A DNA stretch of 64,000 nucleotides from Eledone cirrhosa. Lineage: Eukaryota. Positions 35,923-54,200 of this stretch are shown here, piece after piece; within the stretch, counting starts at the first letter, position 1; every line of letters starts with the position of its first letter. The position numbers were made by a program, and so were the translations under genes. The stretch is taken from NCBI GenBank assembly GCA_964016885.1, contig OZ024748.1:9114001-9178000 (forward strand). The letters are read 5' to 3'. Below the pieces are notes generated by a model, which saw only the letters and a list, made by a program, of their open reading frames with translations, ran no database searches and was not told the origin of the DNA.

Positions 35923-36597
35923 GGAGAATAGAAATGGCTGTGTAGTTGCTATTTAAGGTAACTTAAAATGCAATGGAAATACGAAGAAAGCAAGAACGGG
36001 GGGGGGGAGTTTTCCTCATCAGTTGTCTACTGGGGGTCTCGGATATTTCTACACTTTAAAGTCAATATACCTCGCCCCGGGGCGTCAATAACTGGATAAG
36101 TTATTGGGAAAACGGAGGATGGAGGGAAGGAAAGCAAAGGGGAAGAAAAGAGAAAACAGTAACAAAACAGCGAAAAGAAACAACAAACCAAGCAATGTGC
36201 GAGCAACTTAAGGTAGAAAGTCCAAGACCACTCGATAAGAGAACTTAAGTTCGAGACTGAGTGGTCGAGAGGAAAGAGACACACGTCCGATCGCCGCAGT
36301 TGTAAGTGAGAAGAGAACTGCTAAACGGTCAGACGAGGGGGTGAAAATGAGAGGGAGAAAGGAAGAGGAAGAAAGTGGTGTAAGAGTAGATAGGGCGAAA
36401 AGGGGGTGAAGAAAGAGGAGTGAGAGTAGAAAGTAGCGAAATAGGTAAGTAGAAGGGGAGAGAAGAATGGTCACAGCGAAAAACATGATGAAATAAATGG
36501 AGAATAGAAATGGCTGTGTAGTTGCTATTTAAGGTAACTTAAAATGCGGTGGGAATACGAAGAAAGCAAGAACGGGAGAGGGGAGTTTTCCTCATCA
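35923..36597 (-). mobile_element. Non-coding 576-bp-period partial-tandem element (retrozyme/PLE-like) in (TA)n
   Basis: 99-bp direct repeats at 35923-36021 and 36499-36597; (TA)n on both sides; structured CTGATGA motif at 36009-36113. Confidence 0.8.
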
Positions 36598-36801
36598 CAT
36601 ATATATATATATATATATATATATATATATATATATATATATATATATATATATATATATATATATATATATATTTATTAATATATATATATATGTAAGT
36701 ATATTTATATATTTATTTATATATATATATATATATATATATATATATATATATATATATATATATAAATATACTTACATATATATATATATATATATAT
36801 T

Positions 36802-37090
36802 TATTAAAATAACAGATTAAAGTTTAAGCAAAGAATCGCTGCTTTCACCCTTAACAGGATCTTCTGAAGATCCCGTTGAGGGTGAAAGCAGCGATTCTTT
36901 GCTTAAACTTTAATCTGTTATTTTAATATATATATATATATATATATATATATATATATATATATATATATATATATATATATATAATATATATATATGT
37001 TATTTTAATAAATATTTGCTCTACGGTTCTTATATATTCGATATATATTTATCCTTATCGAGCCCTCTTTGGATTTTAGTCTTCAAAAAT
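36802..37090 (+). mobile_element. Family F palindromic hammerhead element
   Basis: Palindrome 36802-36928 centred on T36865 inside CTGAAGA(36864-70); stem II CCC/GGG, GAAA 36884-87, stem III GCA/TGC; after a (TA)n run, bulged hairpin GCTC(37018)..TC-GAGC(37060). Confidence 0.85.
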
Positions 37091-37605
37091 ATTATTATTA
37101 CTATTATTATTATTATTATTATTATTATTATATACATATATATATATATATATATATATATATATATATATATATGTATATATGTGTGTGTGTATTTATG
37201 TATGTGTGTATATATATATATATATATATATAGGGGAGGGAGTATGTGTGTGTAAGTCTGGCAGTAACATATATATGTTTACAGTATTTAACGCATTAAG
37301 GCGATTCTTCCTTCGCAACTTGTGGATATTTCTTAGAAGTGATTGAACTAGAGAGAAGCAACAGTATGAGGTGGTTGTACTTTAGAGAGATTTAATCCAA
37401 ATTTTAATCCTCTGCAGGTATGTTTCACAGCACTCTGTCGTGTGTATATAGAATATGGCTGCACACGGTGATGATGTGTTTCAGCATGTATAGGTATGTC
37501 AGTATTTATGTACACACACACATACATATATAGATGTGTATACACACACACACATATACATATATATATATGTAAATATGTAAATATATATATATATAGA
37601 TAGAT

Positions 37606-37904
37606 AATTTTCTTTTTATTTGCCACCAGGGCATCAAAAAGTGGGACAAGTACAAAGGGGGGAGTTTACATAACAAGGCGTCCTCAATAAGGAGGAGGCA
37701 ATAACAAAATATAAAAATACAATAAAATATAACAAAATAAAATTTATAACAAAATCCTCAATAGAGAGGAGGCGCCTTGGGAGGTCGCACACACCCCCGA
37801 AAAAAAGTGTGCAACCCTTCTCCTCAGGAGCACAGAGAGGGGGTGCTCCCTTGGTCTTTCATCTTCCTCACCTATAGTCTGATGTAGAGTGAAGGCCCAT
37901 TTAC
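37606..37904 (-). mobile_element. 5'-truncated Tx1/L1-clade LINE (last codons and 3'UTR)
   Basis: Nearly identical to 41158-41452 ([10 protein letters not shown] plus UTR); lies in (GATA)n/(TA)n. Confidence 0.92.
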
Positions 37905-38154
37905 ATATATATAGATAGATAGATAGATAGATAGATAGATAGATAGATAGATATAGATATGTTTATGCATATATAAATATATATATATATATATATATAT
38001 ATATATATATACATGCACACACACACACATATATATATATATATATATATATATATATATATATATATATATATATATATATATATATAATATATATATA
38101 TATACACACATATATATATATATTAATGATAATAATAATATTGATAATAGTAAT

Positions 38155-38390
38155 AATAAGGAGCACCAACGAATTATCAATATAGTATCATTATGTTTAT
38201 TCACATGTGACGTGCGTTTCGTGATCGATCAGCTCAAGGTATGATCAGTATTTTCCGCCCCCAACTCTGGAATCTACAAGTACTTATCGTTTCCAATATT
38301 GACGAGATCAATACCTCTCTACAATATACCAGTGTCTTCTACCGAGAGAAGGTTCATATCTCATCAGCTACTTGTGAACTTCTACATCAG
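38155..38390 (-). ncRNA. Two degenerate hammerhead-like motifs in tandem
   Basis: Minus strand: ACAAGTAg-CTGATGA-long stem II (GAGAT/ATCTC, ACCTTCTCT/AGAGAGGT)-GAAAC..gTACTTGT; then CTGATCA..GAAAC-GCAC-GTC. Confidence 0.55.
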
Positions 38391-51580: not shown

Positions 51581-51680
51581 TCATTGAATATTTACTCCAG
51601 AAAACTGTCGAGTGCTCTGAATCAGTTATAAACACTTATATTTGTTGAATTTCCAACAAATTAAATATCCCTTCTGCTAA
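51581..51680 (+). mobile_element. Tail-only insertion with bulged hairpin in (TA)n
   Basis: ACTC-CAG-aaaa-CTG-TC-GAGT-GCT at 51594-51616. Confidence 0.75.
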
Positions 51681-51734
51681 TATATATATATATATATATA
51701 TATATATATATATAGATATATACCATAGCATAGT

Positions 51735-52030
51735 AACAACACTACACTACATTGCACTATACTAAATTACATTACACTACACTACATTACATAACAGTAT
51801 ACTTCACTACACACTACACTACACCACACTACGTTACACCACACTACACACTACACTACACTTTACACTACACTAAATTACACTACATTACATTACACCA
51901 CACCACACTACACTACACTATACTACACCACACTACACTACACCACACTACACTACACTACACCACACTACACTACACCACACTACACTACACTACACTA
52001 CACCACACTACACTACACTATACTATACTA
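51735..52030. repeat. (ACACT)n pentanucleotide array
   Basis: Seen directly. Confidence 0.9.
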
Positions 52031-52464
52031 TTGAATGCCATTATCTTAACTCTGTGTTTTTACGAAACAATGTACCCAATATATTGATACAATAAACAGA
52101 GTTACAAGTTCCTCAAAATAATACAAATTACGTTGAAACATTGTAAAATATATTTGCTAGACCACTTTTATAGAGTAATGTTTAAAGTGTTCCTTACTTG
52201 ATAGGCAGTGCTGAAATGGAGAGATCTAAAATAATACAGTTATATAATCAGATATATAAAGACCCACAGCAATGTTATATAACTGCTATGATGTTAATGG
52301 AACCTATATTTTCTTATTCTCAGATCTACTTCACATGAAGCTACTTTAATATTTATCTCAGGCATTTTTCTTTGTTAAAGTCTCATGAAAACAAAATAAT
52401 CACAGAAACAGTCTTTTGGAACATTGATACATCACAATTTGTCTAGTTTTGTAAATTAATGTCT

Positions 52465-52810
52465 ATATATTATTAACATATATATATTATATATACGTAT
52501 GTATATGTGTATATATTGATATAGTATTGTTAGCATATATATTATATGTACGTGTGTATATATGTTTATATATATTGATATAGTATTGTCAACATATATA
52601 TATTATATATACGTATGTATATGAGTATATATTGATATAATATTGTTAACATATATATTATATATACGTGTGTATATATGTATATATATTGATATAGTAT
52701 TGTCAACATATATATTATATTATATGTACGTGTGTATATATGTATATCTCAACATAGTATTGTTAACATATATATTATATATATGTGTGTATAAATGTAT
52801 ATATATAGTA
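52465..52810. repeat. ~55-60-bp AT-rich minisatellite
   Basis: ATTGATATAGTATTGTYAACATATATATTATATATACGT units. Confidence 0.85.
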
Positions 52811-53974
52811 TATAGATTATATATGTATATATTATATATATATGTGTGTGAGTTTTTGTGTGTTTGTATGTTTCTAATTGTTTTGATGTTTGATAATTTC
52901 TTATATGTTTTAAGATGTATATTTTAATATTAGATACCCGCCATCTAATATCAACTGCAGGCAGTTATCACGATTAAATGCTACAAGAAAAGAGAAAAAA
53001 AAGACACGTTTTAAAATGATTTATTTAAGTTGAACCAAATCTAACTTCCAATATCTTTAATGAAAACTTAAATTATTGCAACAATCAAAACGAAAGTTTA
53101 GATTTTTTCCTTCTTTACCAAGAAGCATATTTATGATTATAATATAATCAATATTTCAACGACATGAGTTCATTTAACTATTTAATTAATTTCAATAAAT
53201 ATATTCTGGAACAAATACTAAACAGAAATTCTAATTTTAATGTTTTCCTCCAACTTTAAAAAATATATTAATAACATTAAAATCAAACATTTAGTTTCGG
53301 CAAAGTCAGAAAATTTCATATTATATAAAAATATCCAATTGGACACTTATTCATCAGTGTTTAATTCCCTTTCTCTTCTGCCTCCTTCTACCACACTTGG
53401 TCATACATTTCTCTTTTGTTTGTTGGAGGTTTTAATTGTTTTATTTATTGTTGTTGTTGTTGTTTTTAGTTTTTAATTTGTTGTTTTTTAATTATTTGAT
53501 CAAAGGGGTTTCATATGGTTGGTGATTTATTAGATAAGGTTTTCAACCCAATTTCCCAGACCTATCGGTTCTAATGATACAGTAAGTGGTTTCACACAAG
53601 CAATTGAATATCCAAGTAAAATATCATTTCTGTAAGAATTCTAAGCATTTTGATGGCAGTGGTTATTTCTTAATATATATCTATCTACATATCTATCTAT
53701 CTATCTCTCTCATACGGACAGACAGACAGACATACGTATATGCTTATACACATGTATGTGTGCAACTCGATAAATTCCTTAATATATATATATGTATGTA
53801 TATATATATATATATATATATATATATATATATATATATATATTTATATATGTGTGTGTGTGTGTGTGTGTGTGTGTGTGTGTGTGTGTGTGTGTGTGTG
53901 TGTGTGTGTGTGTGTGTGTGTGTGTGTGTGTGTGTGTGTGTGTGTGTGTGTGTGTGTGTATACATATCGGTATG

Positions 53975-54200
53975 TAGATATTTCGTCTCGTTTTATTCGT
54001 TTTGTTTTTGTCCAACGTCCATTGTTGTTTGATCTCGAATATCTGCCGTCCTTTAGATACTATTGATGTCCTGCTGCTGGATGGTCCTGTCGTTGGAAGT
54101 GTCCGAAACTATAATGATCCCCAGAAGACAGCTGATAACCGGAATTTCCGAGTTTGCAGTTTCCTGTTTATGTCTCAGGTAAAGAGAGAGAAAGGTCCCA
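53975..54200 (+). mobile_element. Third, more decayed homologue of the structured-RNA element
   Basis: TATTGATGTCC..GAAACTATAATGATCCCCAGAAGACAGCTGATAA compared with CCCCAGTAGACAACTGATGA. Confidence 0.5.

Follow-up and report, generated by a model that had tools for sequence, protein, structure and literature searches.

A predicted hammerhead ribozyme of non-circular order, with a split stem II, in Penelope-type repeats of Eledone cirrhosa

Hammerhead ribozymes of type SGC (HRIMA-1 and its variants) were described by Eckert et al. 2023 from metatranscriptomes, with none, in the available text of that paper, located in the genomes of known organisms, and those having the same linker and connector helix as the motif presented here cleave in vitro (PMC10085705). 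Type CSG was reported in the same text from two metagenomic sequences only (PMC10085705). Among Penelope-like elements (PLEs), the Naiads were described by Craig et al. 2021, in the parts of the article used here, as having no canonical hammerheads, with some 'HHR_half_core' cases that fit no descriptor (PMC8557442). The non-long-terminal-repeat (non-LTR) retrozymes are presented in the available text of a preprint as non-coding tandem units with one hammerhead each, for which an origin from PLE pseudo-LTRs (pLTR) was proposed (bioRxiv 10.64898/2026.07.22.740005). We analyzed 64,000 nucleotides of the cephalopod Eledone cirrhosa (GCA_964016885.1, contig OZ024748.1, positions 9,114,001 to 9,178,000 of the forward strand), hereafter the window, in which a structured RNA motif occurs in three copies, named A, B and C. 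The motif is very probably a hammerhead in non-circular order, built by two covarying pseudoknots and with an inserted arm that splits stem II, and it would cleave the RNA of Penelope-type repeats.

A preliminary description of the window had drawn this motif as a three-way-junction RNA. The motif is real, but that parse was wrong. Its three helices were found where it had placed them: P1 is GTTTTCC/GGAAAAC in copy A and GTCC(C)/(G)GGAC in copy B, P2 is CAATAACT/AGTTATTG in both, and P3 is CCGGGG/CCCCAG in copy A, with one mismatch, versus CCAACG/CGTTGG in copy B. What had been overlooked are the two pseudoknots, and the order of the conserved elements is cut site, GAAA, CUGAUGA. Stem III is what had been called the apical stem: its 5' strand is followed by a UH triplet, and its 3' strand is preceded by the GAAA that had been considered missing (36049-36046, 50956-50959 and 54105-54108). 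In the family alignment, stem I is a pseudoknot between the 5' part of the apical loop and the six bases preceding CUGAUGA (UGAUUU/AAAUCA in B, UUGUCU/AGACAA in A and CUGUCU/AGACAG in C), and stem II a second one between the 3' part of the same loop and the linker between P2 and P3 (UCGCA/UGCGA, ACGC/GCGU, GAUGC/GCAUC). P3, the connector helix, links stems I and II at their distal ends and meets stem III through a 3-nt bulge and tandem GA pairs. P1 and P2 make up an inserted arm, on one side of which stands CUGAUGA with base 10.1 and on the other the remainder of stem II: after A9 there is at most one base (10.1), and the covarying stem II partner lies around 65 nt upstream. The arm that, in the predicted fold, separates stem II from CUGAUGA consists of one or two helices.

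The elements of the three copies are the following:

50893..50994, plus strand: copy B, split SGC-like hammerhead of family B; all helices and the core intact, best-preserved copy
50893-96/50991-94, plus strand: copy B, P1
50897-904/50911-18, plus strand: copy B, P2
50920-24/50950-54, plus strand: copy B, stem II
50925-30/50970-75, plus strand: copy B, connector helix
50934-38/50959-63, plus strand: copy B, stem III
50940-45/50977-82, plus strand: copy B, stem I
50937..50940, plus strand: copy B, triplet AUA of the predicted cleavage site, with the cut at 50939/50940; across the family, 5' ends fall off at this position
50956..50959, plus strand: copy B, GAAA (G12-A15.1)
50983..50990, plus strand: copy B, CUGAUGA (C3-A9) followed by G10.1, able to pair with U11.1 at 50955
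50931..50969, plus strand: copy B, K-turn-like loop, UGA (50931-33) facing AAU-GA-U (50964-69), with stem III as C-stem
36009..36113, minus strand: copy A, split SGC-like hammerhead of family A; core intact
36071-67/36046-42, minus strand: copy A, stem III
36065-60/36028-23, minus strand: copy A, stem I, one mismatch
36085-82/36054-51, minus strand: copy A, stem II
between 36066 and 36065, minus strand: copy A, predicted cut, triplet AUA
54034..54143, plus strand: copy C, decayed, of family C; triplet GUC, predicted cut 54086/54087

Copy B is fully paired. Copy A shows one mismatch in stem I and one in the connector helix P3, and its positions 10.1-11.1 are a G opposite an A. In copy C, which has decayed and comes from an older family, the stems I-III are mostly still pairable, with the K-turn and P1 damaged; the terminal CTGATGA, claimed for all three copies, is present in A and B but reads CTGATAA in C, which has lost G8 (CUGAUAA) and is predicted to be inactive. 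Folding z-scores against shuffled sequences were -3.33 for copy A, -2.68 for copy B and only -0.69 for copy C. The core pattern has four matches in the window against 0.01 expected, two of them being copies A and B. The other two belong to a single palindromic element at 50159-50195.

The motif has the conserved hammerhead core, covarying stems I-III, and an NUH triplet between stems III and I. The pseudoknot-free junction and circular order of the Rfam types I, II and III are absent from it, its order being S-G-C. In the Rfam scans no plain match to a known family was detected among the matches listed for the window and for 20 loci, with no hammerhead among the best 150 of 410 window matches or among the 75 matches at E<=10 in the 20 loci; the matches listed were microsatellite-driven noise of microRNA type. 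The earlier suggestion of a variant or new self-cleaving ribozyme holds for the variant, as a predicted hammerhead, and fails for the new class, the topology alone being new. The type II hammerhead with a variant core, CAAU replacing GAAA, that the preliminary description had favored is very improbable: P1 does close right after CUGAUGA, as that scheme would have it, but what follows P1 is variable sequence that pairs in P2 (P2 is absent in family G and different in family E), and an invariant, true GAAA stands elsewhere, together with stem III and a UH triplet, in a canonical core that is built by the two pseudoknots. By-eye attempts at hepatitis delta virus-like, twister and type II parses also failed.

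The loop between P3 and stem III, with its 3-nt bulge and tandem GA pairs, fits the consensus of the kink-turn (K-turn), and in copies A and B a K-turn is predicted from the 3-nt bulge, the tandem G-A/A-G pairs, and the canonical and non-canonical stems. The likeness to a selenocysteine insertion sequence (SECIS) or K-turn noticed earlier was half right, the K-turn part holding, as a prediction, for these two copies. That the element is a SECIS or a box C/D small nucleolar RNA (snoRNA) has hardly any probability. Its apical helix has 5 bp and is the canonical stem, a polarity opposite to the geometry of SECIS elements; no open reading frame (ORF) lies upstream among the frames listed; and no SECIS match was found in the Rfam scans (in the window, among the matches listed, and in the 20 loci), so the SECIS candidate was rejected. 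The tandem GA loop, two very weak C/D snoRNA matches over the motif (21 bits versus a cut-off of 85), and the SECIS elements that some Naiads carry according to the available text of Craig et al. (PMC8557442) speak for such an element.

In the host genome, of 3.0 Gb and rich in microsatellites, the copies are not three diverged members of one repeat, as had been proposed, but one member each of three separate dispersed families. Family B gave 2,823 first-look candidates, with the best copies 97-99% identical; family A, 1,982 candidates, with the best copies 92-95% identical; and family C, 152 candidates, with full-length matches 74-82% identical (40 candidates were scored per family). The two repeats that carry the intact motifs are:

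50713..51041, plus strand: family B repeat, 5'-truncated, non-coding, unit of around 525 nt, between (TA)n runs
35922..36598, minus strand: family A insertion, a partial copy (36598-36498) followed by a full unit of around 576 nt, between (TA)n runs

The partial family A copy starts inside CUGAUGA, 3' of the cut. Units are non-coding, around 525 nt in B, around 576 nt in A and 630-650 nt in others, with the motif 50-110 nt from a fixed 3' end. Insertions are 5'-truncated and flanked by (TA)n, often as partial tandems or with an inverted truncated copy, an arrangement that Craig et al. describe for PLEs (PMC8557442). The hallmarks of PLEs are all present, namely a 3' end that is fixed, truncation on the 5' side, inverted copies, partial tandems and (TA)n targets. 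No reverse transcriptase (RT) or GIY-YIG ORF adjoins the motif among the frames listed at the copies and their relatives, and the frames seen are not common to the families, so that sense or antisense coding was rejected. The setting in a non-coding retroelement, inferred earlier, holds.

Pattern counts over the genome are far above those of controls. GAAA-N7-GAT-N11-14-CTGATGA gave 12,794 matches versus 52 for the reversed control, and a second version with GAAAC and CTGANGA gave 1,416 versus 21. The matches sampled, all from the start of contig C1, span around 10 subfamilies. For 177 distinct copies picked by the pattern, the upstream sequence, which lies outside the pattern specification, was considered. 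An upstream UH triplet together with at least 5/6 stem I and at least 4/5 stem III pairs was found in 125 of the 177, versus 1.0 on average, and 6 at most, when the upstream sequence was shuffled; many of the remaining 52 are chance matches or are truncated inside the motif. The triplet stands 14 or 16 nt before G12 in 120 of these 125 copies and is AUA in 54, AUC in 31, GUU in 15, GUC in 15, GUA in 6 and other in 4, with H17 never being G; in family E the site-to-GAAA distance is 14 nt.

We also aligned 25 hand-picked copies with MAFFT, blind to structure. As the preliminary description had anticipated for a larger alignment, the helices covary: two-sided change was found in 27/34 pairs, 82% of the cells are paired versus 30-46% in slid controls, and the covariation score of 0.444 versus 0.203 was reached in 0/500 shuffles. 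Two-sided changes affect 6/6 pairs of stem I, 3/5 of stem II and 4/5 of stem III. Considering the pseudoknot pairs alone, 10/12 change on both sides, a count reached by 27/500 shuffles and a score reached by none of the 500. The lone 10.1-11.1 pair occurs as four pair types in 15/25 rows. Every core position is kept in 23-25 of the 25 rows, with C3, G5, G8, A9, G12, A13, A14, A15.1 and U16.1 present in all of them; CUGAnGA and GAAA were imposed by the search pattern in about half of the rows, U16.1 being outside the pattern. The 5' strand of the K-turn has, by column, A in 24/25 and G in 15/25 rows. A covariance model without pseudoknots (R1) missed copy C in the window and found old copies of families C, E and G weakly.

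The genomic 5' ends of the repeats were then considered as a sign of cleavage. Of the 927 exact family-B 3' tails, the first 100 served for this, less one near-duplicate locus, and for each of the remaining 99 the point where its match stops was mapped. The stop comes within 500 nt in 77 of them, and the other 22 continue into another unit; some stops beyond 105 are subfamily divergence or internal deletion and not true ends. Counted upstream from the 3'-tail anchor, the predicted cut is at 70 nt, and 19 of the 99 copies start at 36-70, one at 71-74 and none at 75-105, in such a way that the 35 nt 3' and the 35 nt 5' of the predicted cut hold 19 versus 1 starts (binomial p 4e-5). The sharpest step among 424 split points scanned is at 70-72. 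Three copies start exactly at 70, the inverted arms of loci L367 and L385 end at the predicted cut or one base short of it, and most ends are scattered across the 35-70 nt after the site. Microhomologies of TA or AT are equally frequent on both sides of the cut (7 versus 8). This pile-up fits a template RNA whose 5' end would be the predicted cut, and it is likely that the motif cuts its own RNA, with many short copies starting at or just after the predicted position.

Two alternatives can be weighed against these ends. In the first, the same hammerhead would be functional only when formed between two tandem units or in circular RNA, with the 3' half (connector, stem I, CUGAUGA and P1 strands) pairing with the 5' half of the next unit, in CSG order and with the rest of the unit as the P1 loop. 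Partial tandem units do occur, small Penelope hammerheads are reported in the sources consulted in part to cleave as dimers, and unsplit CSG forms stand at six of the nematode Naiad ends read (see below). We consider this arrangement unlikely: the strands of one copy all lie within around 105 nt, where local pairing is possible, and, among the 19 junctions immediately 3' of the cut, 12 belong to terminal, non-tandem copies. In the second, a conserved non-catalytic RNA (an RT- or protein-binding, export or stability element based on the K-turn) would stall reverse transcription. The K-turn-like loop and the spread of the 5' ends over the structured region, and not all at one base, agree with it, but it leaves unexplained the core bases, A15.1-U16.1 in 25/25 rows and the lack of G at H17 in the 125 copies; stalling also predicts neither the junctions at 61-70, where the pairing partners would already be unwound, nor their absence at 75-105, which includes the 3' strand of P2. 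This second alternative appears improbable.

The fold was also recognized in published Naiads. From the 54 Naiad records of the supplement of Craig et al., 31 consensus 3' ends of 150-420 nt and one further excerpt were inspected by eye. The split fold was found in ten of them (Bfor, Naiad-3_Chem, Amil, Aacu, Anas, Naiad-2_Movir, Plae, a record listed with the Darwinula elements, Obim and Ovul), with the K-turn also in Obim and Ovul. The unsplit CSG order was seen at six nematode ends (Nbra 1-3, Hcon, Hpol and Asuum). Neither form was recognized in the other 16 short excerpts, which are no test of absence. In the end of Naiad-1_Movir there is a stretch that may resemble the consensus of the twister ribozyme. 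In the same supplement (PMC8557442 supplement S5), the ends of Naiad-1_Movir and Naiad-1/2_Chem have a different structured motif, and the CSG ends of the nematode Naiads are clean, a permutation otherwise reported, in the available sources, from two metagenomic sequences.

In the Eledone genome, three Naiad motif patterns gave nothing or only Neptune-type ORFs, and a fourth gave one decayed 5' half without RT or 3' end; no Naiad ORF joined to the motif was found there. This half, at positions 790-2300 (plus strand) of locus L395, is a decayed N-terminal GIY-YIG Naiad half that is interrupted by microsatellites and resembles published cephalopod ones. In 50 loci of PLEs with C-terminal GIY-YIG the motif is not at the 3' ends, and four full-length matches to the model lie away from the ORF ends. 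Loci L200 and L201 (ORFs of 938 and 844 aa) and L202 (1,096 aa) are Neptune-type PLEs with long ORFs, and the 900 nt after the stop hold no type I hammerhead spacing. The non-coding repeats are likely derived from Naiads.

Several observations weigh against the hammerhead reading. The minimum free energy of single-stranded copy B favors another fold, in a folding model without pseudoknots. The 10.1-11.1 pair is absent in 10/25 rows, copy A of the window included. Since the aligned rows are related subfamilies, their changes cannot be taken as independent events; three rows of family E are off by two columns and were counted against the structure. Family E has no K-turn and family G no P2, so both are optional. 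Only 3/20 junctions near the cut are exactly on it, and RT stalling in the knot could account for part of the pile-up. Finally, none of the four motif patterns found an intact Naiad gene in this genome, though family B is young. The reading is carried by the core nucleotides, their spacing, the covariation of all helices, the tandem and inverted (TA)n structure, the lack of ORFs and the 5'-end pile-up.

Other elements of the window and genome are worth recording. At 36790-36940, between (TA)n runs, a minimal type I hammerhead of canonical form (CTGAAGA...GAAA at 36864-36887, plus strand) occurs as an inverted pair and belongs to another Penelope-type family. At 50110-50250 there is a near-perfect palindrome with CTGATGA...GAAA in both arms (50147-50169, minus; 50185-50207, plus). 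It consists of two truncated copies, placed head to head, of another repeat with a hammerhead, and has loci L151 and L298 as relatives. Candidate type I CTGATGA...GAAA spacings, judged by spacing alone, stand at 41584-41622 and 19241-19265 (both plus strand). Positions 2146-6000 are a long array of a 19-bp minisatellite, and 40495-41187 (plus strand) holds a 231-aa open frame like those in L068 and L087, probably a 3' fragment of a long interspersed nuclear element. Elsewhere, two more tandem non-coding families in S-G-C order (L256, L258, L259, L291 and L292, near their GAAA...CTGATGA match; L146 and L293) have shorter connector helices and a different 5' arm.

We propose the following model for the three-dimensional fold, cleavage, priming and the origin of longer copies. 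A read-through RNA would fold into the knot, with the K-turn folding P3 back along the core in such a way that the connector could join stem III to the tips of the other two stems. The RNA would be cut after AUA into unit pieces, and a borrowed PLE RT would prime at a (TA)n nick on the AT-ending tail and copy up to the cut, which would account for the many copies that do not exceed 115 nt. Those that are longer or in tandem may come from uncut or circularized RNA, or from template jumps. We further regard it as rather probable that this is a seventh natural hammerhead architecture, non-circular, opened in the CUGAnGA-stem II block by a multi-helix junction and folded by a K-turn, which would be the processing ribozyme active in Naiads and in their non-coding parasites from ctenophores to molluscs, may be activated by a host K-turn-binding protein, and would have evolved, inside the Naiad clade, from the unsplit CSG form that nematode Naiads kept.

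Compared with known systems, the motif represents a new topology of a known ribozyme, whose structure is well supported and whose cleavage is predicted; no description of the split fold was found in the literature searched, which mostly did not extend to subscription journals. With type SGC, as presented in the available text of Eckert et al., it shares the order of cut site, GAAA and CUGAnGA, the two pseudoknots, the canonical core, the short linker between stems I and II, and the helix tying the other ends of these stems. In type SGC a strand of stem II directly follows CUGAnGA, as a 'block C' assumed to be unbreakable (PMC10085705), whereas here this block is broken: the stem II strand is 5' of everything and is reached via P1 (plus P2) in a three- or four-way junction. 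The split fold thus breaks the block rule used for enumerating hammerhead permutations. Also unlike type SGC, a K-turn would join the connector helix to stem III, the word 'kink' being absent from the main text of PMC10085705, and it would be a natural answer to how the SGC connector helix reaches stem III. Furthermore, thousands of copies are found in an animal genome, in such a way that non-circularly permuted RNAs known before only from unassigned environmental sequences are now placed in animal genomes.

With type CSG the cyclic order is common, and the split form opened at the P1 loop, minus the insert, is CSG, although the CSG sequences, as far as the consulted text goes, keep block C whole and have no K-turn. 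With the Naiads the window elements share the (TA)n preference and the partial tandem and inverted 5'-truncated insertions described in the consulted parts of PMC8557442, differing in that they have no ORF; the split hammerhead would explain why Naiads seemed to be without the hammerhead of other PLEs. With the non-LTR retrozymes they share, according to the available preprint text, the lifestyle as non-coding tandem units, although the arrays here are short (1-3 units). Retrozymes are defined and searched there by type I hammerheads, and the motif here is SGC-like, outside that definition; a search of this kind would therefore miss the SGC-like split topology, which implies a large class missed by standard ribozyme and retrozyme censuses.

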